Source of the DNA: an uncultured Gammaproteobacteria bacterium
Lineage (GTDB): Bacteria > Patescibacteriota > Patescibacteriia > UBA9570
Length of the DNA stretch: 61,462 bases
Assembly: GCA_964385285.1 (NCBI GenBank)
Contig: CAYLOJ010000007.1
Span: 1-61,462, forward strand
Reading direction: 5' to 3'
Part shown: piece by piece, positions 1,745 to 47,619 of the stretch
How the letters are laid out: the number at the start of each line of letters is the position of its first letter
How positions within the stretch are numbered: position 1 is the stretch's first letter
Position numbers and translations under genes: made by a program
The notes under the pieces: model-generated
Database searches by the model: none
What the model was told of the DNA's origin: nothing
Seen by the model: only the letters and a program-made list of their open reading frames with translations

Positions 1745-1772
1745 CGTATTTGAACGAAAAATCCTAGATTGT

Positions 1773-1840
1773 GAGTAGCCCGCCGCATCGAATCGCATCG
1801 ACGCGGCAGGCACTCCTCCTACCATTGACGCCGAAGCGTC
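1773..1840 (-). other. Cassette-A 3' module: UUCG-tetraloop hairpin, then UAGGAGGA, then a 13-bp GC hairpin
   Basis: Minus strand GACGC-UUCG-GCGUC (1827-1840), then GGAGGA (about 1814-1822), then the GAGUGCCUGCCGC...GCGGCGGGCUACUC stem (1773-1815). Confidence 0.5.
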
Positions 1841-10210: not shown

Positions 10211-11172
10211 AGAACCCTTGGTTAGATTTACCAAAACCGTTGATCTATTTAGCGCCAATGAGCGGGGTGACAAATTTGGCCTATCGCCAGATTGTAAAAT
10301 CATTCGCCTCGGATATTTTGTTTCCGGAATTTGTATCGATTGATGCCATGCACTATGGTTCCGACAAATCTGATCTACTACTGAAATATGAGGAATCAGA
10401 ACGCCCGATCATCGCTCAGTTGTTTGGTTCTGAACCCGAGCTGTTCCATGAAGCGGCTTTGAAAATTAAAGCCCAAGGCTTTGATGGTGTCGATATTAAC
10501 TTTGGATGTCCGGCTCCTAAAGTTGCCAAGAATGGCGGCGGCTGTGCCCTCTTAGGAGATCTCGGTCGTTGTCGGGCCATTATTGAGGCCGTCATCGCTG
10601 CGGTGGGTAACGATTTACCGGTGTCGGTCAAAACCCGCATTAGTTATAAGCAAGTCCATGTGCGCGATTTTTGTAAAACGATTGCTGACCTTCCCCTCTC
10701 TAACTTAACGGTCCACGGCCGTCCATTTGAGCGCCCGTATGAAGGGGCGGCAGATTTAGATTGCGTGAAAGAAGCCAAACAATCTGTTCCATTCTTAGTC
10801 TGTGCCTCCGGACACGGACACACCCCGGAAGCGGCTAAAGAAACGTTGGATTATACGGGTTGTGATGGTGTGGCTGTTGCCCGCGGTACTTTTGGCAAGC
10901 CCTGGTTAATTAAACAGATCAAAGAGTATTTAACGACTGGTAGTTACTGGCAGCCAAGCCAAGCCGAAATTTTGGATATCATGTTGCAGCATGCCCGGTT
11001 AACGACCAAATTAAACTCGGAGCGACCATTTGTAGAGATCCGTAAAGTGATGGGTTGGTATGTGCGCGCTATCCCGTATGCGGCTCAATACCGTGCTCGT
11101 TTAGTGCGCGTCAACAGTTTGGAAGATATTGAAGTCATTGTACAAGAAATAAAACAAGGCCTGCCGGCCTAG
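10207..11172 (+). CDS. dus: tRNA-dihydrouridine synthase
   Basis: LAPMSGVTN, DINFGCP and HGR motifs. Start placed at the ATG at 10207, giving an ATGA overlap with the previous stop. Confidence 0.85.
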   Translation: MKNPWLDLPKPLIYLAPMSGVTNLAYRQIVKSFASDILFPEFVSIDAMHYGSDKSDLLLKYEESERPIIAQLFGSEPELFHEAALKIKAQGFDGVDINFGCPAPKVAKNGGGCALLGDLGRCRAIIEAVIAAVGNDLPVSVKTRISYKQVHVRDFCKTIADLPLSNLTVHGRPFERPYEGAADLDCVKEAKQSVPFLVCASGHGHTPEAAKETLDYTGCDGVAVARGTFGKPWLIKQIKEYLTTGSYWQPSQAEILDIMLQHARLTTKLNSERPFVEIRKVMGWYVRAIPYAAQYRARLVRVNSLEDIEVIVQEIKQGLPA

Positions 11173-11187
11173 TGTTGGAGTTCAATT

Positions 11188-11246
11188 GTGGTGCGTACAG
11201 GCCGGGCGGGAATGTGATTCCCCGCGCCGGCTGTACGTTCCCCCTA
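11188..11246 (-). other. Cassette-B 3' module: UAGGGGGAA, long GC hairpin, CACCAC
   Basis: Minus strand GGGGGAA (11238-11245), hairpin CGUACAGCCGGCGCGGGG-AAUCACAUU-CCCGCCCGGCCUGUACG (11194-11237), CACCAC (11188-11193). Confidence 0.55.
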
Positions 11247-11249
11247 CTG

Positions 11250-11594
11250 CTACGGACAGAGCACGTCGGCGTAAAGGACTCCGCCCTTGGAGATGTCCTT
11301 TGAATTGATGATGTGCATCATCCGGCGCCCCTGGTAGGTCGTCCGAGCCGGCGCGATGCCACGGTTTTCGATCCACGCGAGCAAATCACCGCTGAAGTGC
11401 TCCATCACGCTGTCGGCGAAGGAGATGCGCGGGTAGATCGTGTAGCCGTTCGGCAACGCGATGGGATTGAACCCAGTACGTGGGTCACGCGTCCGAAGGT
11501 CACCCTCGTACGCGTCGGTCTCCTCGTACCAGGTGATGGTGGCGAACTTCTCCGCCAGGTAGACACCCACCTCGTCCAGTCGTCTCAATTGCAT
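11250..11594 (-). CDS. GC-rich cassette B: hypothetical 114-aa protein
   Basis: ORF track. High GC3. SD UAGGAG lies 7 nt upstream of the ATG. Confidence 0.7.
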   Translation of the reverse strand: MQLRRLDEVGVYLAEKFATITWYEETDAYEGDLRTRDPRTGFNPIALPNGYTIYPRISFADSVMEHFSGDLLAWIENRGIAPARTTYQGRRMMHIINSKDISKGGVLYADVLCP

Positions 11595-11639
11595 CGAGAA
11601 CTCCTATACATTAATGCTCTGCGAGACAGAGCCGGTGCA

Positions 11640-11671
11640 TTTAATCACAAAAAACGGATTTGTCAATCCGT
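11640..11671 (-). promoter_or_regulatory. Terminator hairpin with embedded promoter for cassette B
   Basis: Minus strand AACGGAUU-GACA-AAUCCGUU plus U6. TTGACA (11661-11666), 17-nt spacer, TAAAT (about 11640-11645). Confidence 0.5.
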
Positions 11672-11714
11672 TCCATTCGATTTGATATATAATTTGCAGT
11701 GTTCGGAGATGTGC

Positions 11715-11774
11715 GTGGTGCGTACGGGCCGGGCGGGAATGTGATTTCCCGCGCCGACCTCGTACCTTCCTCCT
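11715..11774 (-). other. Cassette-B2 3' module: GAGGAGGAA, long GC hairpin, CACCAC
   Basis: The hairpin at 11721-11765 is a sequence paralog of the 11194-11237 hairpin (same AAUCACAU loop) with altered stem bases. GGAGGAAG lies at 11766-11774 and CACCAC at 11715-11720. Confidence 0.55.
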
Positions 11775-11792
11775 CTGTCTGGTGCACTGGTA

Positions 11793-11954
11793 CTACACCA
11801 GCTTCCAGAACAGCCAGCCAAAGAACTTCCAGAACAGCCAGCCTTCACCGGCCAGGATCGCAAGGGATACGATACAGAACACCACGACCGAGATCGGGGT
11901 GCGCTGCTCGCCACTTTGGTCGTCGCCGGCGAAGCCATCCACGTCATTCTGCAT
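11793..11954 (-). CDS. GC-rich cassette B2: 53-aa single-TM micro-protein (MQNDVDGFAGDDQSGEQRTPISVVVFCIVSLAILAGEGWLFWKFFGWLFWKLV)
   Basis: Hand-translated; it is below the ORF-track size cutoff. SD CGGAGGG lies 4 nt before the ATG. High GC3 and one clear hydrophobic helix. Preferred over the 119-aa alternative frame 11663..12022, which runs into AT-rich promoter DNA. Confidence 0.5.
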   Translation of the reverse strand: MQNDVDGFAGDDQSGEQRTPISVVVFCIVSLAILAGEGWLFWKFFGWLFWKLV

Positions 11955-11980
11955 GTGCCCTCCGTGTAGTAGGCGCGAGC

Positions 11981-12015
11981 AGTAAACACAAAAAACTCGG
12001 ATTGGTCAATCCGGT
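11981..12015 (-). promoter_or_regulatory. Terminator hairpin with embedded promoter for cassette B2
   Basis: Minus strand CCGGAUU-GACC-AAUCCGAG plus U6. TTGACC (12004-12009), 17-nt spacer, TTTACT (11981-11986). Confidence 0.45.
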
Positions 12016-12025
12016 TGGTCATACG

Positions 12026-12093
12026 GGTGGTGATGGACTCTACGGGTCAGTGATGTGCGTTGCCGCGACAGCACTGACTCGTAGCTTCCCCCT
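12026..12093 (-). other. Cassette-C 3' module: UAGGGGGAA, 13-bp hairpin, UCACCACC
   Basis: GGGGGAAG at 12085-12093. CUACGAGUCAGUG...CACUGACCCGUAG stem at 12040-12084. CACCACC at 12026-12033. Confidence 0.55.
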
Positions 12094-12096
12094 AGC

Positions 12097-12402
12097 TCAG
12101 GTTGCGGGGTCTTCGAAGATCGTCATGATCTGCTTGCGGTTCCCGTCCAGCAGGGTGATGACGCGGCCGTCATTCACCTTGGTGGGGTGGGGCGTCAGGC
12201 CGATGGTGGCATGGACGAATCCAGCCAGCGTGTCGTGCCAGACCCGCTCCGACTCGATGACGAAGCGCCCAACCCGAACTGCCTTCGGGCCGAAGACGAC
12301 CTGGGTGGGACTACGTGACGTCACGAAGACCTTCGAGAAGTCGACCATGTTGAACGCCAGCGCCAGCGCCAGCTCGAGATCCTTCAGAGACAAAGTACGC
12401 AA
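12097..12402 (-). CDS. GC-rich cassette C: hypothetical 101-aa protein (TTG start)
   Basis: ORF track. High GC3. GGAG lies 7 nt upstream of the TTG. Confidence 0.6.
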   Translation of the reverse strand: MRTLSLKDLELALALAFNMVDFSKVFVTSRSPTQVVFGPKAVRVGRFVIESERVWHDTLAGFVHATIGLTPHPTKVNDGRVITLLDGNRKQIMTIFEDPAT

Positions 12403-12423
12403 AATAGCTCCGTGAGCCCCAGC

Positions 12424-12452
12424 AGGCTAATGGAGATTACTGTTTATGTCAA
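12424..12452 (-). promoter_or_regulatory. Sigma70-type promoter for cassette C
   Basis: TTGACA (12447-12452), 17 nt, TAGCCT (12424-12429), immediately after the stop of the upstream membrane-protein gene. Confidence 0.45.
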
Positions 12453-12460
12453 ACTAGACC

Positions 12461-13150
12461 CTATTCCCGATTGCGGCCGATCAAGATCATCGCCACAATG
12501 GGCGCAGCAATCCATCCAAAATTGGTCCACTCATTGGTGAACACATACTGTGTTAATGCGGAAAACTTATGAAGTACATTATCCGGCATGAAGGATAAAG
12601 TGACGGATACTAATAACCCAACATGCAACACACTAAACACCAAGGTTTGCCACCACTTCCCTTCTCCATTTGGAGCCAAGGCATTCAACACCGCTTGGCG
12701 TGACAATAAGAAAAATAAAATAATGAATACGGAGATAAAGGCAGTGATCTGTACAGTGTAACTATCGTTCACTTTGATGTTCAGCACAAACTCTGGCAAT
12801 GCCGCTACCACCGCCAACGCCATATAGATACTGACCATGATGGCGATGATACGATCCTTCCCTAAGGACAAACCATAGAGCAGAGCACCGACAACAAAGA
12901 AGCCCACTAAAAACAGATCCCATGATGGATTGCCCATGTTCAGGCTTTTAAGAGTTTGGTCGATATTCAACTGGCTAGTACTACTATTGGTATTACTCGC
13001 AGCTTCTTCAACTGCGGTAACGACTCCGGTTGATTCTGTGCTCGCCGTTACGGTACCAGAATCTGCATTCGTATTGGTATCCGAATTCGTATTACTATTC
13101 TCTGTATCCGAGACTACCGTTTTATTTTTTTGCTCAGTATTTTTTGGCAT
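12461..13150 (-). CDS. Multi-pass membrane protein with a low-complexity Thr/Ser/Asn N-terminus
   Basis: ORF track. Several hydrophobic helices. Confidence 0.65.
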   Translation of the reverse strand: MPKNTEQKNKTVVSDTENSNTNSDTNTNADSGTVTASTESTGVVTAVEEAASNTNSSTSQLNIDQTLKSLNMGNPSWDLFLVGFFVVGALLYGLSLGKDRIIAIMVSIYMALAVVAALPEFVLNIKVNDSYTVQITAFISVFIILFFLLSRQAVLNALAPNGEGKWWQTLVFSVLHVGLLVSVTLSFMPDNVLHKFSALTQYVFTNEWTNFGWIAAPIVAMILIGRNRE

Positions 13151-15159: not shown

Positions 15160-15213
15160 GGGTTGGTGATGGTCCGCGGCGGCAATAGATATAGCCGCGG
15201 ACCATCTCCTCCA
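15160..15213 (-). other. Cassette-D 3' module: UGGAGGA, perfect 13-bp hairpin, ACCAAC
   Basis: GGAGGA at 15207-15213. GAUGGUCCGCGGC / GCCGCGGACCAUC stem at 15168-15206. Confidence 0.55.
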
Positions 15214-15591
15214 TCAGCCCTGAGGCTTGGTCTGCTCTCGCTCGTAGGCGTGAACACCGGCGTAATTGCTGGTACCCGGACCGTGGCTGAACGACACGAT
15301 CCGACCACGCGCGGTACCGTCACTGCCGAGGTGAACGTACGGGGTCAGCGTCACCACCAGCGTCTGCAGCCACCCGACCACCACGTGGTTGCGCTGGGCC
15401 AATCCGGAGTAGTCGTAGTGATCATCGAACACGATGACGTACGGCCCGATCTCCAGGTAGGGCTGCAGGACACCGGACAGATCGACGCGGACATTGATGC
15501 CGCCGGTCGACTTCGGGAAGTCCACACGGGTGAACAGCTCGGTCAGGAACGTTTCGACGCCATCCATCTTCAACAATTTCACATCCAACAT
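15214..15591 (-). CDS. GC-rich cassette D: hypothetical 125-aa protein
   Basis: ORF track. High GC3 after an AT-rich first ~10 codons. Confidence 0.65.
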   Translation of the reverse strand: MLDVKLLKMDGVETFLTELFTRVDFPKSTGGINVRVDLSGVLQPYLEIGPYVIVFDDHYDYSGLAQRNHVVVGWLQTLVVTLTPYVHLGSDGTARGRIVSFSHGPGTSNYAGVHAYEREQTKPQG

Positions 15592-25068: not shown

Positions 25069-25158
25069 AATTGATGTACGTTAATGTTGAACATCCATCA
25101 GTATAGCAAGCTTTCGCACTTCTAGGGACTAACAATCGGTTAATCCGTACAAGGACGT

Positions 25159-25205
25159 GGGAGAGGATGCAGCCGAAGCTACTTCCTCATCCCTGGTTCC
25201 TCCAG
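25159..25205 (-). other. Radical-SAM cassette 3' module: UGGAGGAA plus a UUCG-tetraloop hairpin
   Basis: GGAGGAA at about 25197-25204. GGGAUGAGGAAGUAGC-UUCG-GCUGCAUCCUCUCCC at 25159-25193. Confidence 0.5.
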
Positions 25206-25230: not shown

Positions 25231-26358
25231 TCAGCGGGTCAGGATCTTGGCCTGAACATCGCGATCAACGACGAACCCACGTTCGTCACCGTCGCAACCG
25301 ATGCCACCCCAACAGGCATACACCTGCTCGCGGAGCACCGCCAGACGGAACTCTTCGATCTTCTCGAAGTCCCACTCGATGTGGTAATCGTTGCCGACCT
25401 TGATCACCCGACCGAGCGGCGGATCCCATCGATCGACGCAGCCGACGATCCGCAACTCCTCCCCCACCTTGATGAGGGCGAATAGACGAAAGCCGGCCCG
25501 ACACCACTGCGTGCGGTTCGGCACGTGCCACTCCGGAGAGAGCCACGGGAGGACCTGTTCGATCCCCGCGTCCCCGACATCCTCGGACATTCCGAAATAC
25601 AGCGGGGTATGCTGGAAGCTCGCACAGAGCTCCGCGAGGTAGCCGTAGAAGCGGACGATGTCGTCACGCTCCAGCTCGTAGCTGGTCAGCTTCGGATCGC
25701 GCCGGAAATTGGCCAACGCGTTGAAGCGGCACACATCTACACCGTTGTTGAGGCAAAACTCAGCCATCTTCTGCAGGTTTTCACGCGTCAGGTTCCGCTT
25801 GTGGAACGTGAAGGTGAGAATGATCTGCAGTTGATGTCCGGTCCGTGCCCGCCAGGCGCAGATGTTCTCAACGGCCGTGCGAATGACACGACCCGGGGTG
25901 ACGCCACGGAACACGATCGGCGTGTCCGCGGCGTCGTGCGCCGTGATCGTGATCGCACGGTAGCCGAGCTGCCAGCCACGATCGAGACGATCCTCCCAGC
26001 CGGGCTGAGTGAGGATGCGACCCGCGGACCAGGCCGCAAAGCCGTTCTCCTCCACCCGGAAGGCGGAGCCACCCTCATCCGCCAGCAACGCTTCATCGGC
26101 GAAGCTATCGGCGAGGATGTACGAGATGTCGTACCCCTGCCGGTGCAGCGAGTGAACAATCTGCATCGCCTCTTTCCGCGGCACCTCGTACGGCGCCTCG
26201 TTGAAGAAGTAACAGTGCTCACAAGCGGCCTGACAGGTCTTCTTCCCCACCGTGTTCGCGGCGTGGAAGTAGATGGTGATGTCCTGCGGGCGCAACTGCC
26301 CGAACGGGACGTTAAAGTCGACCGGCGGGAAGCAGCGCAGAGTCTTTAGAGCCATCAT
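25231..26358 (-). CDS. GC-rich radical SAM enzyme (subfamily unassigned)
   Basis: CQAACEHCY is the CX3CX2C motif followed by an aromatic residue. About 63% GC in a hand-counted sample. SD CUGGAGG. Antisense and alternative-frame ORFs are judged spurious. Confidence 0.75.
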   Translation of the reverse strand: MMALKTLRCFPPVDFNVPFGQLRPQDITIYFHAANTVGKKTCQAACEHCYFFNEAPYEVPRKEAMQIVHSLHRQGYDISYILADSFADEALLADEGGSAFRVEENGFAAWSAGRILTQPGWEDRLDRGWQLGYRAITITAHDAADTPIVFRGVTPGRVIRTAVENICAWRARTGHQLQIILTFTFHKRNLTRENLQKMAEFCLNNGVDVCRFNALANFRRDPKLTSYELERDDIVRFYGYLAELCASFQHTPLYFGMSEDVGDAGIEQVLPWLSPEWHVPNRTQWCRAGFRLFALIKVGEELRIVGCVDRWDPPLGRVIKVGNDYHIEWDFEKIEEFRLAVLREQVYACWGGIGCDGDERGFVVDRDVQAKILTR

Positions 26359-26507
26359 GTGGCCTCCAGATCTAGAGTTTCGAGATGAAAAGAGCTGACA
26401 GTAGAGACCTCCGGTGAAGCGAACTTCACCAGAGATTACTACTAACGTATTAGCACGTTAATACTCCGAAGAACGCACAATAAACCATTCTTGTTCGATG
26501 TTGTCAA
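26359..26507 (-). promoter_or_regulatory. Promoter plus ~115-nt structured 5' leader of the radical SAM gene
   Basis: TTGACA (26502-26507), 17 nt, TTTATT (26479-26484). The leader holds GGUGAAG-UUCG-CUUCACC (26413-26430) and a UAACGU/ACGUUA hairpin. Confidence 0.45.
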
Positions 26508-26559
26508 TAGTTGGAGATTTGGACATAAGAGTTGGAAGATAGATTTGAAATTAAGCTGC

Positions 26560-26700
26560 AAAAAATCCGCCAAGCGGCGGACGAAACGGGTAATGCTATT
26601 TGAGCTCGACTCAAACACCATCACCCACCCTATGGTGGTGACTATTCATATAGTTAGTGGAGAGATAGCGGGAATTCATATTCAAGTGTTTTAACGTATT
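26560..26700 (-). ncRNA. Candidate ~140-nt small transcript S1 (or mRNA for a 22-aa micro-ORF)
   Basis: Own promoter: TTGACA at 26730-26735, 17 nt, TATCTT. Terminator CCGCC-GCUU-GGCGG plus U6 at about 26560-26581. Contains ORF 26611..26679, MNSRYLSTNYMNSHHHRVGDGV, with no SD. Confidence 0.35.
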
Positions 26701-27347: not shown

Positions 27348-27539
27348 ATGTCTACGTATTACGGACAACTGATGGAAGCAGAGTTGGCGGTGCGTGGCCT
27401 GGGCCCTGATGGCAAGCCACTGCAGGGTGACCCAGACATGCATGGCGGCCACCCGGACGCAAGCCCGGACCCCGTGAAGCCGGCGGAAGGCTCGCCTCTG
27501 CCGGCGACGAACGAAGAAGAGGGCTACCACATGCCGTAG
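27348..27539 (+). CDS. GC-rich 63-aa acidic Pro/Gly-rich protein
   Basis: ORF track. SD UGGAGGA lies 7 nt upstream of the ATG. Preferred over the two antisense ORFs. Confidence 0.5.
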   Translation: MSTYYGQLMEAELAVRGLGPDGKPLQGDPDMHGGHPDASPDPVKPAEGSPLPATNEEEGYHMP

Positions 27540-27559: not shown

Positions 27560-27602
27560 AGGAGGAATTGAGCGCCGCTAGATTTCAGATCTGGCCGCGC
27601 TC
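27560..27602 (+). other. 3' module of the 27348 gene: AGGAGGAA plus a long hairpin (same orientation as its plus-strand ORF)
   Basis: AGGAGGAA at 27560-27567. GAGCGCCGCUAGAU-UUC-AGAUCUGGCCGCGCUC at 27570-27602. Confidence 0.5.
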
Positions 27603-27642
27603 TTTCCATTTCTGAACAGTGTTCAGGATGCGTAACTTTGTC

Positions 27643-33206: not shown

Positions 33207-33235
33207 ATGGTACCATGATTTTTCCACTTTGTCAA
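33207..33235 (-). promoter_or_regulatory. Sigma70-type promoter P_H
   Basis: TTGACA (33230-33235), 17 nt, TACCAT (33207-33212). Confidence 0.5.
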
Positions 33236-33255
33236 TGGCTAAGATAAACTAGTTT

Positions 33256-33320
33256 GTAGACTACTGTCTTCAGAATTTGAACCCTATTGTGCAGGCGTTG
33301 CGGCAGTGGCAACAAGTTTT
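33256..33320 (-). repeat. R repeat copy R1 (resembles a tRNA 3' half)
   Basis: Minus strand AAAACUUGUUGCCACUGCCGCAACGCCUGCACAAUAGGGUUCAAAUUCUGAAGACAGUAGUCUAC, followed by the palindrome AAACTAGTTT and the promoter. Confidence 0.7.
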
Positions 33321-33365
33321 AACTTCTTTAAGCTTACCCTTTAGTACTTTTCGTTATATGAATAT

Positions 33366-33863
33366 TCAGTATGTTAGGGCTTCAACAAGGGCCTTGCAAA
33401 AACGCTCTTGCCGCAACACAACACCCTTAGTATTGTGCCATGAACCGTCTCCAGGAATATATAACACGTGTTGACCATGCGCATCCCGATAGATCAGCTT
33501 TACTGCAACAGCGCTGCCATACGCAGTGATGATATGTTGAACGCTAGCAGAGACCACATCTGATTTATTGATACTAATGTTATCCATCGGCTGAAGAGCT
33601 GTGAACGTATAAACGCCCTTCATACAGGTAATACGTATATACCAGGGTGCAATAATTTTACGTCTAGTCGCGTACACAAAAAAAATGCCTAGCACAAACA
33701 TAACACCAACCCCTAACACACTGAGGGGCTCATCGCTACTAACAGGAATTTCTCCCTGAGCCCACAGCCAAATAAAACTACCAAATAATAGACTCATGAT
33801 AACAGGAAAAAATAAAATAATGCCTAGCCGGTCACGAGTTGAATGTCTCCTTTCAAATTGCAT
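33366..33863 (-). CDS. Hypothetical membrane protein (2 N-terminal TM helices)
   Basis: ORF track. Host-like GC. The ATG lies 9 nt after R2 with no promoter in between. Confidence 0.6.
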   Translation of the reverse strand: MQFERRHSTRDRLGIILFFPVIMSLLFGSFIWLWAQGEIPVSSDEPLSVLGVGVMFVLGIFFVYATRRKIIAPWYIRITCMKGVYTFTALQPMDNISINKSDVVSASVQHIITAYGSAVAVKLIYRDAHGQHVLYIPGDGSWHNTKGVVLRQERFCKALVEALTY

Positions 33864-33871
33864 ATAGTAAT

Positions 33872-33936
33872 GTAGATTCCTGTCTTCAGAATTTAAACCC
33901 TATTGTACAGGCATTGCGGCAGTGGCAGCAAGTTTT
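33872..33936 (-). repeat. R repeat copy R2
   Basis: About 85% identical to R1. Lies between hammerhead 1 and the 33863 ORF. Confidence 0.7.
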
Positions 33937-33950
33937 AGCCGGTTCAATTA

Positions 33951-34016
33951 TCCCCTTTCGTCCTTAATCTTGCGATCTAGACTCGTCAGTTTAGGCATTA
34001 CCTAAAGAGGGTGATG
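33951..34016 (-). ncRNA. Type III hammerhead ribozyme, copy 1
   Basis: Minus strand CCCUC^UUUAGG-UAAUG-CCUAAA-CUGACGA-GUCUAGAUC-GCAA-GAUUAAGGAC-GAAA-GGGG. All core nucleotides are present (CUGANGA, G10.1-C11.1, GAAA, A15.1-U16.1, C17). Stems I and II are loop-closed and stem III is open. Predicted cleavage between 34007 and 34006. Confidence 0.8.
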
Positions 34017-34101
34017 AGTGGGGCCTTGGGTTGCAGGAGACGTTGGAACGTTCGCCGCAACACACGTAGGTCCCACCCGCCCTCATACACCATCTGTCCT
34101 C
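34017..34101 (-). other. Conserved structured domain between the cassette-I stop and hammerhead 1
   Basis: Homologous to 36536-36610. Helix GUGGGACC/GGCCCCAC and inner ACGU-UCCA-ACGU hairpin. Confidence 0.5.
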
Positions 34102-34482
34102 TTACTGGCAGCTCACCTCCCAGCCACCGAACGGCTCAGCGGCTCCGATGATGAATGACGGTTCGGCCTCTGGTGCCTGCGGGCATTGCACCCGCCACTC
34201 GTCCGCGAGCGCCTTGGCCCGCTTGATACTGAGCGGCGGGTCCTGGAACGCCTCTTCACTCATCTGGGTGCCGAGTGAAGTGACATGACAGCGCTTGTCA
34301 CTGTGCTGCTTCCAGAACGCGCAGGCAGACCCCAGGTCGTACTTGACGGCCTTTCCATCAGGGCCGAGAGTCGACGAATTCTTCTGATAGAGTACGAATC
34401 CGCGGACTGCGTTATCGGCAGGCATAGCAGCCATGATGCTGAGAACGATGAGAAGAGTGAAGGCAGTCTTGAAAGTTCGCAT
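34102..34482 (-). CDS. GC-rich secreted 126-aa Cys-containing protein (cassette I)
   Basis: ORF track. N-terminal signal-like helix MRTFKTAFTLLIVLSIMAAMPA. Confidence 0.6.
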   Translation of the reverse strand: MRTFKTAFTLLIVLSIMAAMPADNAVRGFVLYQKNSSTLGPDGKAVKYDLGSACAFWKQHSDKRCHVTSLGTQMSEEAFQDPPLSIKRAKALADEWRVQCPQAPEAEPSFIIGAAEPFGGWEVSCQ

Positions 34483-34513
34483 GGGCGCCTTATCCAGGTG
34501 GTGAGAGATACCG

Positions 34514-34564
34514 TTCCACCTGCTTACAGCTGACTTCTAAAAAATCAGATCTAAGCAAGTGGAA
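34514..34564 (-). promoter_or_regulatory. Conserved 13-bp leader hairpin followed by CUCACCACCUGG, upstream of cassette I
   Basis: UUCCACUUGCUUA...UAAGCAGGUGGAA. Homologous to 37137-37186. Confidence 0.45.
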
Positions 34565-34591
34565 CGAGTAATGTATGAGGGTTGTAAAGAA

Positions 34592-34774
34592 CAAAAAACA
34601 GGCGGTTAGCCTGCGTTGTGGAATAGAGAATGAATGGTTGTTTGGCTCGTACGATTACCTCGTACAGTGTCACATTACCATAGGGAACGTGACCAAACCC
34701 ACTTCATAACTTTTCCATTCAGTTATGCTAGTAGTTACTTGAAGGTGCATGTTTTGAGGCATGTCCTCAAAAAC
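34592..34774 (-). ncRNA. Y-family structured leader/sRNA, copy Y2
   Basis: Promoter TTGACA (34804-34809), 17 nt, TATAGT (34781-34786). Four hairpins. Terminator CAGGC-UAACC-GCCUG plus U6 at about 34593-34613. Confidence 0.55.
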
Positions 34775-34817
34775 AGTGGCACTATACTCATGCATATGAG
34801 TTATGTCAAGAATTGCT

Positions 34818-34883
34818 GTAAACCACTGTATTCAGAATTTGAACCCCATTGTACAGGCGTTGCGGCAGTGGCAACAGGTTTTA
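34818..34883 (-). repeat. R repeat copy R3
   Basis: Lies directly upstream of the Y2 promoter. A 12-nt R-end fragment (AGAGUCUACAUA) also overlaps the stop codon at about 34929-34940. Confidence 0.7.
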
Positions 34884-34939
34884 CGGCCTGTATTGGCTTG
34901 ATTTAATAGCCACAGCATTTTTGGAGAATTATGTAGACT

Positions 34940-36250
34940 CTATGACTGCATTGGATACTTAGCCATGAACGCTTCTAACTCGGCAGATAATTTAGCTTGT
35001 TCGGCCTGTAAACGTGTGTGTTCAGCCTGAGCTTGATCTAGCTCGTCGCCATATTGGTTTAAGTGGGGATCAATTGCTTTTTGAAAATCTGCATGTCTAG
35101 CCGCTTGATCGTGTGCCTGGTACTGGCCACGTGGCAAGTTATGTTGCCAAATGTTTTTCTCTACCCGCGATACTTGAAACCAACCAATGGCAGCACCTGC
35201 CGCTGCCCCTAACGCAGCCATTGGAATGTTTGGTTCACCAGTCTGCCCCACGTTGTACATGACACCCGCCATGCCCATAATGCCAGCAGTACCTAAAGTG
35301 ATATGCGCTACCTTTAACATTTCCCAAATTTGATGAGCAGTTACCCGTAATTGAATAGAGGCATCTCTTGCATCATAGGCATGTTGGCGAGCTGCTAAAT
35401 ACTGCTCAGCATCTTCTGCATCTACCGCTAATTCAAAATATTGTGCCAGCAATTCATTCAAGCGTTGGCCAGCCGTACGTATCTGTTCAATTAAGTTGGT
35501 CACTGCTGGTTCGGGTTCGTTGACTGCAGGTTGGCGCGGATCTTTGAATTTCACGTTACCATCACTCCCCAACCGATCAATTTCTAACTCTATCTCATGA
35601 ATTTCTTCTCGCAAAGATCGTAACTCTTCAGTCAGAGTAGTAATTTGTAGATTGCGATTTTCTGGAGTACCAGCGCGTTGTTCCGCCCGGCGTTGTTTGG
35701 CAGCTCGATAGCGTTCTAATTCTGGGTACTGAGCAAACCAACGCTCAGAATAATCGTGAGATTCCTCCATACGCGACAAACCAAATTCCACCGCTGAACC
35801 AGCCATGGCCCCACCAGCTGTGGCCAACGCTGTCATGGCAGGATCCTTAGTGAGCATATACGCTCCAGCACCAACACCAGTGCCTATAATTGAACTAGAA
35901 GTAACGTAACGTGTTACTGCCCAAGCCAGTTTAGCTGCTTTAGCTTTTATCTCGGCAAAACGTTGAGAATTTTGATTAAGTTGTTCAAGTGCTTGAATAC
36001 TGCGTTCTGCTCCTTCCTGAGCTTGCAACAATTTATAGTAGTGACTTAAGGCACTATCAAATTTTCGACCTGATTCTGCTAAATAGTCCAAATAGGCCTT
36101 TAAGGTTTCTGGAGTGGCTTCACCTTGGAATTCTAAAAGATTTTTAGCATGCTCTTCAGGTTGATGGTTAGGCAACGCAACCTTTGGTTCCAAATGGACT
36201 ATCGGTTCCGGTGGACGACGAAAGGGTTGACGAGTACGTTCAATACTCAT
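34940..36250 (-). CDS. Hypothetical coiled-coil protein with two glycine-zipper membrane segments
   Basis: ORF track. GTGVGAGAY...GGAMAGSAV and GTAGIMGMAGV...LGAAAGAAIGW. Confidence 0.6.
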   Translation of the reverse strand: MSIERTRQPFRRPPEPIVHLEPKVALPNHQPEEHAKNLLEFQGEATPETLKAYLDYLAESGRKFDSALSHYYKLLQAQEGAERSIQALEQLNQNSQRFAEIKAKAAKLAWAVTRYVTSSSIIGTGVGAGAYMLTKDPAMTALATAGGAMAGSAVEFGLSRMEESHDYSERWFAQYPELERYRAAKQRRAEQRAGTPENRNLQITTLTEELRSLREEIHEIELEIDRLGSDGNVKFKDPRQPAVNEPEPAVTNLIEQIRTAGQRLNELLAQYFELAVDAEDAEQYLAARQHAYDARDASIQLRVTAHQIWEMLKVAHITLGTAGIMGMAGVMYNVGQTGEPNIPMAALGAAAGAAIGWFQVSRVEKNIWQHNLPRGQYQAHDQAARHADFQKAIDPHLNQYGDELDQAQAEHTRLQAEQAKLSAELEAFMAKYPMQS

Positions 36251-36251
36251 A

Positions 36252-36416
36252 TTAGGATTGTGTGGATCTTAGTTGAGCTTGGATATCATCAGAAAAAGAT
36301 TCGATGTCCTGGTTCAGTTGTTGAAAGGCTAATTTCACTTCTGCAGGAGAAGCTTTACCCTGAGCGATTTTCTCGCACAAGTCATCAAAGTTTAATGGAG
36401 TATTATCATTCGCCAT
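36252..36416 (-). CDS. 54-aa hypothetical protein, translationally coupled to the 36250 ORF
   Basis: Hand-translated MANDNTPLNFDDLCEKIAQGKASPAEVKLAFQQLNQDIESFSDDIQAQLRSTQS. Its TAA stop lies 1 nt before the next ATG. Confidence 0.45.
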   Translation of the reverse strand: MANDNTPLNFDDLCEKIAQGKASPAEVKLAFQQLNQDIESFSDDIQAQLRSTQS

Positions 36417-36431
36417 AAATAGATATAGACA

Positions 36432-36459
36432 ATTTTAGCAGATTTTAGGAAAAAATCAA
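36432..36459 (-). promoter_or_regulatory. Candidate promoter for the 36416 operon
   Basis: TTGATT, 16 nt, TAAAAT, immediately downstream of hammerhead 2. Confidence 0.4.
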
Positions 36460-36470
36460 GCGCAAATGAT

Positions 36471-36535
36471 TCCCTTTCGTCCTTGATCTTGCGATCTAGA
36501 CTCGTCAGTTTAGGCATTACCTAAAGAGGGTGATT
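36471..36535 (-). ncRNA. Type III hammerhead ribozyme, copy 2
   Basis: Same core as copy 1. The single stem II difference (GAUUAAGGAC to GAUCAAGGAC) converts a G-U pair to G-C. Predicted cleavage between 36526 and 36525. Confidence 0.8.
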
Positions 36536-36610
36536 GAGTGAAACCTTGGGTTGAAGCTGACGTTGGAACGTCACCAGCAACACACTTAGGTTCCACTCGC
36601 CCCTCATACA
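36536..36610 (-). other. Conserved structured domain between the cassette-J stop and hammerhead 2
   Basis: GUGGAACC/GGUUUCAC replaces GUGGGACC/GGCCCCAC of copy 1 (compensatory). GCUG/CAGC replaces GCGG/CCUGC. Confidence 0.5.
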
Positions 36611-37108
36611 CTAGTACCGCATGCACACCTGCGCCGTCAGCTCTTCACAGTTCGCAACGTGTGAATCTGGAGTACTCGCGAGACACTGTTCGTACAGGTA
36701 TCGAGTAGCGACGGGGGTGCACAGAGTGGTTGGATCGAACTGTTCGTAGTCCGACCACGGAGCCATGATCGGCCACTCATCCCACTTCGTTGGCATTCGA
36801 CCCAACTGCAGCGCGCGCCAGTTGCAGTTCGACTCGAGTGCGAGAAGTTTGATACTGGCACCCTGGGTATTCATCAGAATGACCTGCATCTGCTCCTCGT
36901 CACACAAAGGCGGCGGGTGCAATGTAGCGTCCATTTCCGTGAGCATGTACCGGAAGAGATCGGACATCGCCCGCTCTCTATCAAGTGACAACTCGAGCTT
37001 GTGAATCTTCTTGGCCTGCTCGATGAGCGCGTCCTGCTTTCGATGAGCGCACCCGCTGCTCAGGAGGATGATGAGGAGGACGACGATGGTCTTCAGCTGT
37101 GTGTACAT
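36611..37108 (-). CDS. GC-rich lipoprotein, 165 aa (cassette J)
   Basis: Lipobox LLSSGC. Seven further Cys. SD GGGAGAG. Confidence 0.65.
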   Translation of the reverse strand: MYTQLKTIVVLLIILLSSGCAHRKQDALIEQAKKIHKLELSLDRERAMSDLFRYMLTEMDATLHPPPLCDEEQMQVILMNTQGASIKLLALESNCNWRALQLGRMPTKWDEWPIMAPWSDYEQFDPTTLCTPVATRYLYEQCLASTPDSHVANCEELTAQVCMRY

Positions 37109-37136
37109 TTGTCTCTCCCAGGTGGTGAGATTAGGG

Positions 37137-37186
37137 TTCCACCTGCTTACAACTGACTTCGTAAAATCAGCTCAAAGCAGATGGAA
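37137..37186 (-). promoter_or_regulatory. Conserved leader hairpin followed by CUCACCACCUGG, upstream of cassette J
   Basis: Homolog of 34514-34564. The downstream UCUCACC...GGGAGAGA could sequester the SD. Confidence 0.45.
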
Positions 37187-37212
37187 CAGATAGTGTATGA
37201 AGGTTGTAAAGA

Positions 37213-37401
37213 ACAAAACAGCAGGTGTTTCACCTGCTTTCACATTACGATTGATTGTACTCATCTAGACCTCTTTACAGGCAACGCGATTAACTCGCGC
37301 GGTACTACGCCACCATAGGGGGTGTAGTCGAACCCACTTGAACCTGTGTTCAAGTTGTTTCTAGAAAGTGCATGTTTTTACAGATGTGTATTCTGTAAAA
37401 A
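37213..37401 (-). ncRNA. Y-family structured leader/sRNA, copy Y3
   Basis: Promoter TTGACA (37431-37436), 17 nt, TACCAT (37408-37413). Terminator GCAGGUG-AAA-CACCUGC plus U-run at about 37214-37237. Confidence 0.55.
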
Positions 37402-37460
37402 CGCGCCATGGTACACCAAAATACATGTTTTGTCAAGACCTAATAGACACTGCTTTGTAT

Positions 37461-37525
37461 GTAGACTCTGTCTTCAGAATTTGAACCCTATGGTACAGAC
37501 GTTGAGGAAATGGCGGCAGGTATTA
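37461..37525 (-). repeat. R repeat copy R4 (most diverged)
   Basis: ...ACGUCUGUACCAUAGGGUUCAAAUUCUGAAGACAGAGUCUAC, upstream of the Y3 promoter. Confidence 0.6.
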
Positions 37526-37573
37526 GTATTCACTAGCTCTATTCACCTCTATTGAGATGAACACAGTATGCGT

Positions 37574-37602
37574 GAGAAGGGGGTAGCTCTTCTCGTCCTC
37601 CA
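37574..37602 (-). other. Cassette-L 3' module: UGGAGGA plus hairpin
   Basis: GGAGGA at 37596-37602. GAGAAG/CUUCUC stem at 37574-37594. Preceded by the CGCACAU/AUGUGCG hairpin. Confidence 0.45.
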
Positions 37603-37660
37603 ATGTGATTTGCGCACATCTACCCCTGGATCATGGAATGATCAATGTGCGACTAGATCT

Positions 37661-38203
37661 CTACTTCCGCCGGCGGAATCCAAACAGCGGGAAGAGCAGC
37701 GTTGCTGCGAAAGTAATACCTTGATTACATCCTCCGCACTCGACAGAATCCTTGTCGTCTCCCGTATCGCTCTCCCCAGAATCGATCTCGACCGACTGGG
37801 TGTAGAGGTTCACGCTGGTGCCGTCGACGAAAACCGCGAGGGTCGAATCCCGGTTTCCCTCCAACCAGGCCTCGTAGAGGCTCTCGGGGATGTACGCCGT
37901 GAACTCGTCACCGGTCAGGTCATAGTCGAAGTCCTCCCGCCCGTTGGGGAAGAGATCCGACTCACTGGCCCACGTGGACAGCCATTCGTAGTTGCAGACC
38001 TCATCGCCGTCGTCGAGCAGGAAGTTGTACACGACCTGGATTGAGTCGTAGCCGCTTGGGCTCTCGACGCCCGGGGTGAACGAGTTGGCATCGACCACGA
38101 TGGCGGTCGCCGACTCGCAGAATGCGTCGTTTGAGCCGTCGGCTCCCATGGTGTAGTCAGCGTCATCGGCGAGTGCTGCCGACAGGAACAATGAAAACAA
38201 CAT
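37661..38203 (-). CDS. GC-rich secreted acidic protein with a MYXO-CTERM/GlyGly-CTERM-like sorting tail (cassette L)
   Basis: Start moved to the ATG at 38203 (MLFSLFLSAALA signal peptide, SD UAGGAGAG). C-terminus ECGGCNQG-ITFAATLLFPLFGF-RRRK. Confidence 0.6.
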   Translation of the reverse strand: MLFSLFLSAALADDADYTMGADGSNDAFCESATAIVVDANSFTPGVESPSGYDSIQVVYNFLLDDGDEVCNYEWLSTWASESDLFPNGREDFDYDLTGDEFTAYIPESLYEAWLEGNRDSTLAVFVDGTSVNLYTQSVEIDSGESDTGDDKDSVECGGCNQGITFAATLLFPLFGFRRRK

Positions 38204-38316
38204 CACTACTCTCCTACTACTTCTGCTGGAACATTCCAGCAGCCAAGCAACTTTTCGAGTTACGAGGACTAAATAGACTATCGCGTAATCTATTCCATCC
38301 CAGTAATTCGACAAAC

Positions 38317-38460
38317 AAAAAAGACCCTTACTGGGTCATTTCCTAAAAACCTCTTCATCAGAGGGAACAACGACCGGATGGTCTTTTGTTTTGAGTGTTG
38401 TTAACGGAGTGCAGCCTAGCTCCGTCTCGTTACGTAACGAGATTAAATTTTCAATGAGGC
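38317..38460 (-). ncRNA. W-family structured leader/sRNA, copy W2
   Basis: Hairpins UCUCGUUAC/GUAACGAGA, CGGAG/CUCCG, AACAAC...GACC-AUCC-GGUC...GUUGUU and CCUCU-GAUGA-AGAGG. Terminator GACCC-AGUAA-GGGUC plus U6. Confidence 0.5.
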
Positions 38461-38464
38461 CAAC

Positions 38465-38493
38465 AGGTTAAGGCAAAATGTGATTTTTGTCAA
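38465..38493 (-). promoter_or_regulatory. Sigma70-type promoter of W2
   Basis: TTGACA (38488-38493), 17 nt, TAACCT (38465-38470). Confidence 0.45.
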
Positions 38494-38513
38494 TAGGTAA
38501 CGTAAACTAGTTT

Positions 38514-38578
38514 GTAGACTACTGTATTCAGAATTTGAACCCTATTGTGCAGGCATTAAGGCAGTGGCAGCAAGTTTT
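38514..38578 (-). repeat. R repeat copy R5
   Basis: It occupies exactly the position that the tRNA-Glu 3' fragment occupies in the W1 unit. Confidence 0.7.
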
Positions 38579-38602
38579 ACAGTTCGTAAACTGAATATAA
38601 AA

Positions 38603-38630
38603 ACAAAAAACACCAGCGAATGACTGATGT
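38603..38630 (-). terminator. Rho-independent terminator of cassette K
   Basis: CAUCAG-UCAUUCG-CUGGUG plus U6. Confidence 0.6.
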
Positions 38631-38673
38631 TTTTTGGGGTGGGTATCTTCTTTCTGCTCGATATGAATCGGCA

Positions 38674-38716
38674 GTGGTGAGATACCAGCGACCCTTACGG
38701 ATCTAACCTATCCTCC
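38674..38716 (-). other. Cassette-K 3' module: CGGAGGAUA, GUAA-tetraloop hairpin, CACCAC
   Basis: GGAGGA at 38711-38716. GAUCC-GUAA-GGGUC at 38690-38703. CACCAC at 38674-38679. Confidence 0.45.
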
Positions 38717-38732
38717 GAATCCTAACATGAAG

Positions 38733-39266
38733 CTATGGGCAGGTATGTCCATCATCGACGTTACCGTCGCAGTCATCATCGATGCCGTCGCAGTTCTCGT
38801 CGGGGGCACCAGGGTGAATTGCTGCGTTGGTGTCATCGCAGTCACTGGAACCAAGCGCGTAGCCCTCGGGGGGCTCGGCCGCACAAAAGTAGTCCCCTGT
38901 CCCTGCTCCGTAACCATCTTCATCCAGGTCCGGATAATAGATGGTCTGGCCGGTCAGCGTTCCCGGCCCCTCGTCTTCGTCGATGGCCCCGTCACAATCG
39001 TTGTCGATGCCATCGCAGGCCTCGGAATCTTCGGGACTCCTTCCACCATAGACGTCATCACGATCATCATCGCAGTCATCGTCATTGGTGACGTATCCTG
39101 CCGGGACGGGGTCACCACCACAGGCCTCCCAGATTTCCCGGGGATCACCACGACCATCGCCATCGAGATCGGCATACCAGGTTTTTGTAGGGTCGCCGCA
39201 ACCCGTATCGTTTTTTACAACGTTGACTGTGCATGCAAGAAGACCGAGGAGTAGAACGAGCAACAT
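38733..39266 (-). CDS. GC-rich lipoprotein with MopE-type putative metal-binding Cys/Asp repeats (cassette K)
   Basis: Lipobox LGLLAC. Two repeats of the form DCDD...PGAPE.CDGIDNDCDG preceded by DLDGDG(Y/R)G. Confidence 0.75.
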   Translation of the reverse strand: MLLVLLLGLLACTVNVVKNDTGCGDPTKTWYADLDGDGRGDPREIWEACGGDPVPAGYVTNDDDCDDDRDDVYGGRSPEDSEACDGIDNDCDGAIDEDEGPGTLTGQTIYYPDLDEDGYGAGTGDYFCAAEPPEGYALGSSDCDDTNAAIHPGAPDENCDGIDDDCDGNVDDGHTCP

Positions 39267-39437
39267 GTACTTCTCACAAAGACGTCCTAAACCGTCCCCT
39301 ATTTTTCAAGCGTTGTGGACTAGCTGTTCAGGCAGCTATTTTTAGCACTACTGGTTGCTACTAAAACTAAAGTCCTGACTGTATCCCTAAACATACAGAG
39401 ATAAAGTTAGAACGTTACTTTAAGAAACTAGGCAATA

Positions 39438-39581
39438 AAAAAAGACCCTTACTGGGTCATTTCCTAAAAACCTCTTCATCAGAGGGAACAACGACCGGAT
39501 GGTCTTTTGTTTTGAGTGTTGTTAACGGAGTGCAGCCTAGCTCCGTCTCGTTACGTAACGAGATTAAATTTTCAATGAGGC
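39438..39581 (-). ncRNA. W-family structured leader/sRNA, copy W1
   Basis: Part of a ~203-bp direct repeat (39438-39640 versus 38317-38519) with only 3 mismatches, all in the promoter spacer. Confidence 0.5.
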
Positions 39582-39585
39582 CAAC

Positions 39586-39614
39586 AGGTTAATCCAAAAT
39601 GTGGTTTTTGTCAA
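39586..39614 (-). promoter_or_regulatory. Sigma70-type promoter of W1
   Basis: TTGACA (39609-39614), 17 nt, TAACCT. Confidence 0.45.
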
Positions 39615-39634
39615 TAGGTAACGTAAACTAGTTT

Positions 39635-39654
39635 GTAGCCCCACAGGGAATCGA
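39635..39654 (-). repeat. 20-nt duplicate of the tRNA-Glu 3' end (att-like direct repeat)
   Basis: gtagccccacagggaatcga is identical to 39793-39812. It cannot fold as a tRNA on its own. Confidence 0.8.
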
Positions 39655-39792: not shown

Positions 39793-39793
39793 G

Positions 39794-43444: not shown

Positions 43445-43455
43445 AGGATTATAAT

Positions 43456-46395: not shown

Positions 46396-46396
46396 G

Positions 46397-47551: not shown

Positions 47552-47565
47552 AAATCATTAATGAT

Positions 47566-47590: not shown

Positions 47591-47619
47591 TAGTTCTTGT
47601 TGTTTAACAATAACCTACA

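Follow-up and report, generated by a model that had tools for sequence, protein, structure and literature searches.

A purine-flanked stem-loop downstream of GC-rich cassette genes in a Kerfeldbacteria-like genome

The 61,462-nt contig CAYLOJ010000007.1, analysed over its whole length (the window), has a GC content of ~45% and contains thirteen short GC-rich open reading frames (ORFs; 56-64% GC) interspersed among native genes. A first-pass annotation had listed ten sites with a recurrent 3' signature, in which a Shine-Dalgarno (SD)-like purine block, GGAGGA(A), is followed by a long GC hairpin and then often by CACCAC. We found that this signature is real: a peculiar class of genes carries it at the 3' side, the lineage conserves it, and it is best read as a variant of the known 3' stem-loop and terminator elements. 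The element folds strongly, lies past the stop codon in the orientation of its gene, is exclusive to GC-rich genes and is conserved in sister genomes with compensatory changes. We assign a probability of about 50% to a model in which it is an RNA stem-loop in the gene's own 3' untranslated region, where the purine tract would form the 5' strand of a basal helix.

Results

A hairpin element confined to GC-rich genes

All of the sequences reported in the first-pass annotation are present where it had placed them. Seven of its ten sites stand as strong members (A, B, B2, C, D, G and RS, the last behind a gene resembling those of radical S-adenosylmethionine (SAM) enzymes), while K is weak, L is doubtful and the site at 39655-39750 is a tRNA-like remnant. 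The strong elements are indeed co-oriented with the upstream GC-rich ORF, G on the plus strand and the others on the minus strand, and each has GGAGGA(A/G) or GGGGGAA 0-3 nt ahead of the hairpin. The sites are listed below with the energy of the hairpin alone on the ORF-sense strand and, where given, z from 200 shuffles per hairpin; GC3 denotes the GC content at third codon positions.

1767..1822 (-), element A: UAGGAGGAG, 18-bp GC hairpin at 1773-1815, tail CUCACAAUC; begins 21 nt past ORF A (1844-2242, GC3 0.90); -33.5 kcal/mol (antisense -24.6), z -7.8
11188..11246 (-), element B: UAGGGGGAA at 11238-11246, hairpin at 11195-11237, tail GCACCAC at 11188-11194; begins 3 nt past the stop of ORF B (11250-11594); -28.4 kcal/mol, z -5.7
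11715..11774 (-), element B2: GAGGAGGAA, hairpin at 11722-11765, tail GCACCAC; 3' of ORF B2 (11793-11954, a 53-aa membrane ORF); -30.7 kcal/mol, z -6.9
12026..12094 (-), element C: UAGGGGGAA, hairpin at 12040-12084, tail AGUCCAUCACCACC; begins 2 nt past the stop of ORF C (12097-12402); -24.9 kcal/mol (antisense slightly better, -27.3), z -6.4
15160..15213 (-), element D: UGGAGGAG, perfect 13-bp hairpin at 15168-15206 (loop of 13 nt), tail ACCAACCC; directly adjoins the stop of ORF D (15214-15591); -26.3 kcal/mol, z -6.2
25148..25205 (-), element RS: GGAGGAA, hairpin at 25159-25193 with a UUCG loop, pyrimidine tail ACGUCCUUGUA; at the 3' side of the radical-SAM-like ORF (25231-26358); -21.6 kcal/mol (antisense -16.4)
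27560..27613 (+), element G: AGGAGGAA, hairpin at 27570-27602, tail UUUCCAUUUCU; begins 20 nt past the stop of ORF G (27348-27539, +); -20.7 kcal/mol (antisense -17.4), z -5.2
38674..38716 (-), element K, weak and only possibly a member: GGAGGAUA...UAUCUCACCAC flanking a small GUAA-loop hairpin with an interrupted stem; 16 nt past the stop of ORF K (38733-39266); -14.5 kcal/mol for the element
37574..37602 (-), element L, doubtful: GGAGGA and a 6-bp stem, 60 nt past the stop of ORF L; -6.5 kcal/mol

The seven strong hairpins fold with about -21 to -33.5 kcal/mol (z -4.3 to -7.8), and none of the 200 shuffled sequences was as good in any case. The 65-nt stretches counted from the start of the motif gave z -3.4 to -5.5 at these sites. 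Those of K and L each gave z -2.8, which comes partly from a second hairpin in K and from another hairpin further downstream in L; the latter is probably not a member. As a control, the 65 nt after 31 of the 32 GGAGGA sites in the window and after both GGGGGAA sites named in the first-pass annotation were folded singly; the GGAGGA site left out (37075, plus strand) lies inside the stretch folded for 37063. None of the unlisted sites among these 31 reached z -2.5. Nearly all of them are in coding sequence, with z between -1.7 and +1.4 and one exception, a chance antisense hairpin within the GAPDH gene (z -2.2).

The purine motif itself is not clearly enriched in the window, and the signal therefore lies in its position together with the hairpin. 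GGAGGA is at most mildly enriched (32 sites vs 20.5±5.4 expected) and GGRGGAR is not (24 vs 19.5). Of the 24 GGRGGAR sites, however, seven lie just past the stops of GC-rich ORFs and none past the ~48 native ORFs, so that the motif follows 7/13 GC-rich and 0/48 native ORFs (hypergeometric probability ~4e-6, hand-computed and post hoc). A comparison with Rfam 15 gave no match at any signature site, either at the gathering threshold over the whole window or at E values up to 5 within 11100-12500.

In five of the seven hairpins the sense strand gives the better fold, with a margin of 1.3-8.9 kcal/mol that G·U pairs account for. In element A, two wobble pairs (one U·G and one G·U) exist on the sense strand only. 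The B and B2 elements are 95% identical over 42 nt (repeat family D5); compared with B, the B2 stem has a single U·G pair and G-C where B has A-U, whereas ORFs B and B2 are not alike. The elements range from 43 to 69 nt in length, and those of B, B2 and C contain bulged bases.

The region at 39655-39750, listed as an ORF-less fragment with the signature, was ruled out by its folding (z -0.1). The remnant extends over 39637-39750 (-) and repeats GTAGCCCCACAGGGAATCGA, the 3' half of the tRNA-Glu(CUC) gene at 39793-39865 (-); it also scored 21.5 bits (E 0.03) against the mascRNA model. Located next to tRNA-Glu, it may be an integration scar.

Genes and elements are shared with sister genomes

The CysS protein of the window is 80-82% identical to those of Candidatus Kerfeldbacteria metagenome-assembled genomes and 87% identical to that of the Logan contig L191, with which the window also shares gene order. 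These identities and the common gene order indicate that the host is a Kerfeldbacteria-like bacterium of the candidate phyla radiation (CPR). Relatives are also present in the sequencing runs SRR32119618, SRR22387912 and SRR22387934. Its housekeeping genes in the window include dnaX, cysS, dus, hrcA-grpE-dnaK-dnaJ, gap, an ilv/leu operon, scpAB and aspS.

The GC-rich ORFs have GC3 values of mostly 0.7-0.9 (0.58 in K; the range leaves out B2, G and G1). Their proteins matched no Pfam, NCBIfam, PHROG or PADLOC family except DUF4384 (H) and MopE (K). Among 5.8 billion protein clusters, the A and D proteins have zero homologues and the B protein has one. The RS protein has 16 homologues, all metagenomic. 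Exact look-ups of the DnaK and B proteins of the window returned no record, and we found nothing relevant in the literature on Kerfeldbacteria, CPR integrons or GC-rich cassettes. No GC-rich donor was identified for the cassettes; the homologues found belong to sister CPR genomes, at the same loci. In these genomes the signature-bearing genes remain GC-rich (61-66% GC vs 45-50% for the host), as seen for the cassette ORFs A, B, C, D and RS at the loci L081, L083 and L191. The cassette proteins are 24-83% identical between sister lineages, compared with 87-88% for CysS and GAPDH. Recent transfer together with flanking DNA does not by itself account for this persistent GC richness and fast protein divergence.

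The B, D and RS genes occupy the same loci in sister genomes. At the B locus of L191, the same terminator/promoter hairpin precedes a B orthologue (58% identity), whose stop codon is followed by gcaAGGAGGAtcGUG...; the AGGAGGA here is a true SD with a GUG or AUG and a short ORF after it. AAGGAGGAUCAUG then stands ahead of a B2-like membrane ORF (32% identity), and the operon ends with GGGGGAGG and a hairpin homologous to that of B/B2, in which AACAUCGC replaces CACCAC. The D position of L191 holds a GC-rich ORF that shares just 24% identity with D. Behind it come CAGGAGGAGG and a hairpin ~85% identical to that of the window, loop and CACCAC tail included; one pair has changed from A-U to G-C and two from C-G to U·G. 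Another 30 nt on, there is a canonical terminator. The RS orthologues at L081, L083 and L085 keep the purine tract, a hairpin of varying sequence and a U/C-rich tail, and those at L081 and L083 adjoin the same DUF4399 gene. In more distant or lower-GC RS relatives (L084 and L082), plain AT-rich terminators without the tract are found.

One-sided stem changes keep sense-strand pairing in both cases in D, in 3/4 in B and in 6/8 in RS, and both-sided compensatory changes affect two pairs in D, two in B and three in RS. In L002 (CysS 82% identical), only 134 nt separate dus from a membrane-protein gene, and this empty site corresponds to the position of C-B2-B in the window. A search of JGI metagenome contigs with the B/B2 hairpin core CGGGCGGGAATGTGATT gave 105 matches, none of which extends into the rest of the hairpin; these are therefore chance matches.

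Each unit carries its own promoter-like and terminator modules

The order of features in a unit is an AT-rich terminator hairpin, a T-run with a weak -10 box, a leader of 30-80 nt, the ORF, the purine tract, the GC hairpin and the tail. The GC-rich composition runs from the ORF through the hairpin and ends there. The purine tract lies 0-42 nt past the stop codon, and the hairpins of B, C and D start 8-13 nt past it. The terminator hairpin upstream of the ORF looks native, often with TTGACA in its loop, and the native terminators of the window consist of an A-tract, a stem and a U-tract. The canonical terminators next to the cassettes are as follows.

11651..11674 (-), between B2 and B: AACGGAUUGACAAAUCCGUU then a U-run; the TTGACA in its loop is a putative -35 box for B
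11998-12013, after C
11157-11170, after B
1730-1744, after A

Canonical terminators lie 10-50 nt downstream of A, B, B2 and C, whereas D of the window lacks one. The terminators behind A, B, B2, C and the L191 D-position element place the GC hairpins of these units inside the transcript. We scanned for terminators by the rule of at least 5 U within 8 nt directly past the stem. The scan found five terminator-like sites (1.5 expected).

Hairpins with TTGACA or TTGCCA in the loop are present at 2303-2335, 11651-11674, 11998-12013 and 1730-1744, and in L191 at ~1097-1120 and ~2919-2945. They are followed by a T-run and, at 17 nt, by a -10-like hexamer, and they sit before cassettes and dnaX; by their sequence, they look like compact terminator-plus-promoter modules. 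The mechanical ORF call for dnaX (110-1825, -) extends across element A as well as the canonical terminator at 1730-1744. Its true start probably lies at about 1702, on the downstream side of the promoter-like TTGCCA-17-TATACT.

The purine tract is predicted to pair with the tail

The tails are U/C-rich in RS and G and A/C-rich in A-D. Pairing between tract and tail is predicted in RS, G, L085, L083, L081, L191 and D. In RS, GGAGGA would pair with UCCUU of the pyrimidine tail, and in G, the GGAA of the tract with UUCC. For the CACCAC tails, the predicted pairs join the CC doublets to the GG doublets of GGAGG, with A·A mismatches in between. The statement that CACCAC often follows is borne out at B, B2, C, D (as CACCAAC) and K, but as a bare sequence pair the combination is not significant in the window (GGAGG..CACCA 5 vs 2.5; GGGGGA..CACCA 2 vs 0.6). 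CACCAMC is over-represented throughout the window (46 vs 13.6 expected, 3.4-fold). Separately, TCACCACC occurs in 16 exact copies, most of them in coding sequence, without strand bias; on this ground a Chi-like reading was rejected.

The first-pass annotation correctly noted that no start codon follows the tract consistently; only D has an AUG, 2 nt past the SD-like tract. A small ORF starting there was rejected since its frame is lost in L191 through a 2-nt indel in the loop. A ribosome-binding site (RBS) of a downstream gene would have a start codon 5-10 nt past the SD and a conserved ORF. This arrangement is found for the AGGAGGA internal to the L191 operon and for none of the hairpins of the window. 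The first-pass annotation would have given up the signature if the motif in donor genomes were always simply the SD of a downstream gene. This objection applies in part, since AGGAGGA past the stop serves the next cistron in the L191 operon, but it leaves unexplained the copies that abut hairpins and have no following ORF. At the hairpins the tract starts no conserved ORF, and it would not start translation there. The RBSs of the cassettes are of the same type as the tract, for example UUAGGAGGAACCGAUG at 27047.

Cassettes F, H, I and J and their surroundings

The motif is absent after F, H, I and J, as had been stated, and I and J carry a different conserved 3' module instead. It spans 137 nt, is 89% identical between its two copies and consists of a long hairpin directly followed by a candidate type III hammerhead, on the ORF-sense strand in both cases.

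33956-34008 (-), candidate hammerhead after the hairpin 3' of I
~36475-36527 (-), candidate hammerhead after the hairpin 3' of J

All core nucleotides are present (a UC cleavage site, CUGACGA and GAAA), stem II is capped by a GCAA loop, and the two copies hardly differ within the ribozyme part. The Rfam RF00008 score is only 16 bits (E 0.83), and we therefore consider the I/J hammerhead no more than a candidate. The leaders of I and J (34497-34566 and 37121-37190, -) share a long AT-rich hairpin followed by CUCACCACCUGG; this tail has an alternative pairing partner, CAGGUGG, within the 3' arm of the leader hairpin, just upstream of the start codon. This alternative pairing is a possible regulatory switch.

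The cassette run from after H through K (33228-39638) is punctuated by repeat families: repeats of 59-94 nt lie at 33228, 33844, 34790, 37468 and 38486, and one of 216 nt occurs at both 38302 and 39423. Some of the repeats contain the T-arm-like GGTTCAAAT. This stretch is organised unlike the dispersed cassettes A-D.

Upstream of the radical-SAM-like gene, whose product has a CxxxCxxC motif and no Pfam match, are two AT-rich mini-ORFs at 26611-26679 (-, MNSRYLSTNYMNSHHHRVGDGV) and 26458-26526 (-, MSKSPTIDNIEQEWFIVRSSEY). They are conserved in L081 and L083 (HHHLMGTA.. and ..EEWFI.R), are not GC-rich and look like precursor peptides of a cluster for ribosomally synthesised and post-translationally modified peptides. 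The window also holds a complete-looking branched-chain amino-acid biosynthesis block at 42515-55841 (-), unusual in a reduced CPR genome, with ilvE-like, leuB, leuD, leuC, leuA-like, ilvB, ilvC, ilvD, an aminotransferase gene and an ilvA/leuA-dimer fusion.

Discussion

We infer that the element acts at the RNA level, in transcription termination or transcript stabilisation. In the model proposed here, a long GC stem-loop would stand on an imperfect basal helix, whose 5' strand is rich in G/A and whose 3' strand is rich in pyrimidines or C, and the element would come in two variants. In the U/C-tail variant (RS, G and the RS orthologues in L085, L081 and L083), the purine tract would take the role of the A-tract in the ordinary terminators of this genome, and this variant probably ends transcription. 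The CC-A-CC tail variant (A, B, B2, C, D and the L191 D-position element) lacks a U-tract, and its tail may pair with GG-A-GG through G-C pairs around A·A mismatches. Because of the A/C tail and the separate canonical terminator that usually follows downstream, the A-D-type hairpin is more likely a 3'-end barrier or processing point, which would fix and protect the mRNA end after exonucleolytic trimming or cleavage. The resemblance of the tract to an SD would come from the operons themselves: AAGGAGGA separates the cistrons of these GC-rich operons, and a site of this kind may be the origin of the tract. The long hairpin with a candidate hammerhead behind I and J suggests that a hairpin-capped 3' end is a shared theme.

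Among the three options offered in the first-pass annotation, the RNA-stability or terminator type is thus the best supported, by the co-orientation, the location inside the transcript, the better folding of the sense strand in five of seven hairpins and the changes between orthologues, and the recombination site is not supported. Several observations weigh against this model. None of the seven hairpins passes the U-tract scan; G (UUUCCAUU) and the RS orthologues of L081 and L083 (CUUGUUUUUC and ACUUGUCUUUCC) are borderline. For the hairpins of C and D, the antisense strand does as well as the sense strand or slightly better. A stabilising hairpin would also not call for so specific a pattern as the fixed polarity, with purines 5' and a C-rich strand 3', or the repeated occurrence of UAGGRGGAR and AUCACCACC. 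Furthermore, the covariation rests on 2-4 sequences per group, and the ~85% identity of the D hairpins is no evidence of extra constraint, because ordinary intergenic DNA is ~91% identical between the window and L191.

One alternative, which we regard as unlikely though worth serious attention, is that the tract, in genes that stem from tightly packed operons, is the relic or live SD of a former downstream cistron, brought next to an independent end-of-operon hairpin by deletions between SD-like repeats, without any joint function. The L191 operon shows the required ingredients in a row (B-stop-gcaAGGAGGAtcGUG..., AAGGAGGAUCAUG with the B2-like ORF, and GGGGGAGG with the hairpin), and from such an operon the two units of the window, each with a terminator-promoter hairpin, B2 or B and a GC hairpin, are derivable by duplication and deletion. 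The lack of overall GGRGGAR enrichment and the same type of RBS in the cassettes also fit. However, the tract lies 0-3 nt from the stem in seven independent or semi-independent cases and at five related loci, it precedes the operon-end hairpin of L191 with no cistron after it, and the predicted tract-tail pairing is left unexplained. A signal for ribosome interaction or RNA processing is distinctly unlikely by comparison with our estimate for the stem-loop model. Here an SD mimic, GGAGG, would face an anti-SD-like tail, AUCACC-A-CC, at the foot of the hairpin; the element would bind the 30S subunit or a factor that binds the 16S 3' end, or mark a cleavage site, as a functional counterpart of the I/J hammerhead module. 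UAGGRGGAR and (A)UCACCA(C/A)C do recur with fixed polarity in the unrelated hairpins B/B2, C, D, K and L191-D, a terminating ribosome could reach the B, C and D hairpins at 8-13 nt past the stop, and the predicted I/J hammerhead cut would leave ...hairpin-CAUCACCCUC, which resembles the C and D tails. Yet the 16S sequence that the tail would resemble, AUCACCUCC, is only presumed for this organism, CACCAMC is abundant all over the window, and the motif pair is not significant. Moreover, A, RS and G lack the tail, the B-locus orthologue of L191 has AACAUCGC in its stead, and no Rfam family matches.

That the signature is a DNA-level recombination site, either attC-like or the target of a hairpin-recognising recombinase or transposase that delimits mobile single-gene cassettes, we consider very unlikely. 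It would suit the small, mostly orphan single-ORF units of foreign composition with a 55-70-nt imperfect 3' palindrome in which structure is kept more than sequence, as well as the end of the GC-rich stretch at the hairpin, the empty site in L002 and the hairpin that B and B2 share without sharing the ORF. Nevertheless, GGAGGA and CACCAC are not complementary, inverse core sites and AAC/GTT triplets are missing, and the 5' boundary carries no counterpart of the site. Changes in the hairpins tend towards wobble pairs of the sense strand, no copy of the B/B2 hairpin occurs in the JGI metagenome contigs, and the B, D and RS genes keep their loci in the sisters. Recombinase, integrase, transposase and reverse transcriptase domains were all absent from the ORFs of at least 120 aa in the window. 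Also very unlikely, to us, is that the hairpins are inert relics, namely terminators of GC-rich donor genomes that came in with the genes, have not yet decayed and have no function in the host. The end of the GC-rich composition at the hairpin, the downstream terminators supplied by the host and the GC3 of 0.8-0.9, which implies long evolution in a GC-rich background, speak for this, but the genes and hairpins are older than the split of the window, L191, L081 and L083, the hairpins are intact with compensatory changes, and no donor was identified.

We also entertain, as an unlikely reading, that the lineage keeps fast-evolving GC-rich orphan genes in AT-rich 'expression slots' with dedicated 3' modules, which would make the signature a new cis-acting RNA signal peculiar to these genes and no generic terminator. 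A slot would then comprise a TTGACA-loop terminator hairpin as the promoter, the gene and a 3' module of at least two forms, an SD-mimic/hairpin/anti-SD-like tail and a hairpin with a hammerhead ribozyme. Either form might cap the 3' end of the mRNA with a hairpin, or it might bring in the ribosome or a factor that binds the 16S tail.

Even as an ordinary 3' hairpin, the element would show how a CPR genome arranges its accessory genes, one to each insulated unit, with promoter/terminator modules of the native type and a strong stem-loop behind the gene. The element helps gene calling, as with the dnaX call that runs through element A, and operon prediction in uncultivated CPR bacteria. As the only sequence feature common to these orphan or near-orphan genes (GC3 0.8-0.9 in a 45% GC genome), it is a natural handle for finding the gene class in other CPR genomes. 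It is equally a handle for asking what maintains their GC-rich composition, given cassette proteins that outpace those of most neighbours in divergence.

Comparison with known systems

The units resemble integron cassettes with attC sites in having a single, mostly orphan ORF of foreign composition, in forming small arrays (C-B2-B) and in carrying a 3' palindrome of 55-70 nt that is imperfect and conserved in structure more than in sequence; the further attC trait of extrahelical bases in an imperfect palindrome (55-140 nt in attC) placed 3' of a lone ORF is likewise present. They differ in lacking the R''/R' inverse core sites (RYYYAAC/GTTRRRY), a terminal GTT on either strand and an integrase in the 61-kb window, in having GGRGGAR with CACCAC or other sequences as flanks, and in having their own promoter-like and terminator modules and stable loci in the sisters. 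The attC reading was rejected on the missing core sites and on the absence of a Phage_integrase or other recombinase domain from the ORFs of at least 120 aa in the window. A target of a diversity-generating retroelement was likewise rejected, as no direct repeat of any cassette ORF and no reverse transcriptase domain were found in the window. With phage 'morons', which are autonomous units of promoter, ORF and terminator with deviant composition, the units share a promoter-like site, one ORF of deviant GC and a 3' hairpin between conserved neighbours, as well as the empty site in L002, whereas they are chromosomal, sit among housekeeping genes and not in a prophage, and have no PHROG matches.

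Intrinsic terminators with an upstream A-tract also have a GC stem-loop at the 3' end of the unit, co-oriented with it, and a purine tract complementary to a pyrimidine tract; the U/C-rich tails of RS, G and the RS orthologues add to the likeness. In the present elements, however, the tract is G-rich (GGAGGA) and not A-rich, all seven hairpins fall short of 5 U within the 8 nt past the stem, the A-D tails are A/C-rich, and a separate canonical terminator follows A, B, B2 and C.

Repetitive extragenic palindromic (REP) elements are high-copy, sequence-conserved palindromes with a GTAG foot and an associated transposase, RAYT. Here only B and B2 are alike, the copy number is low, the mean column identity across elements is 56%, the GGAGGA/CACCAC flanks have no REP counterpart, and the window has no RAYT or Y1 transposase gene. 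As for the foot, GTAG or CTAG stands ahead of the tract in A, B, C and the RS group and not in D or G. A REP/RAYT system was therefore rejected, as the many near-identical copies and the RAYT gene that it calls for are missing. In function, the REP elements of enterobacteria and the 'positive retroregulator' of the cry genes of Bacillus thuringiensis are 3' stabilising stem-loops, expected to block 3'-5' exonucleases, and REPs within ~15 nt of the stop codon affect the terminating ribosome. The RNase III hairpins of phage T7 early mRNAs and of lambda sib leave a protective 3' hairpin once cut, and the stems predicted from our sequences resemble these systems in being long (~20 bp with the basal helix), internally mismatched and placed between independently expressed cistrons. 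Like the 3' stabilising stem-loops, the signature is a strong imperfect palindrome that comes soon after the stop codon (within ~15 nt in B, C and D) and lies within the transcript, upstream of the real terminator.

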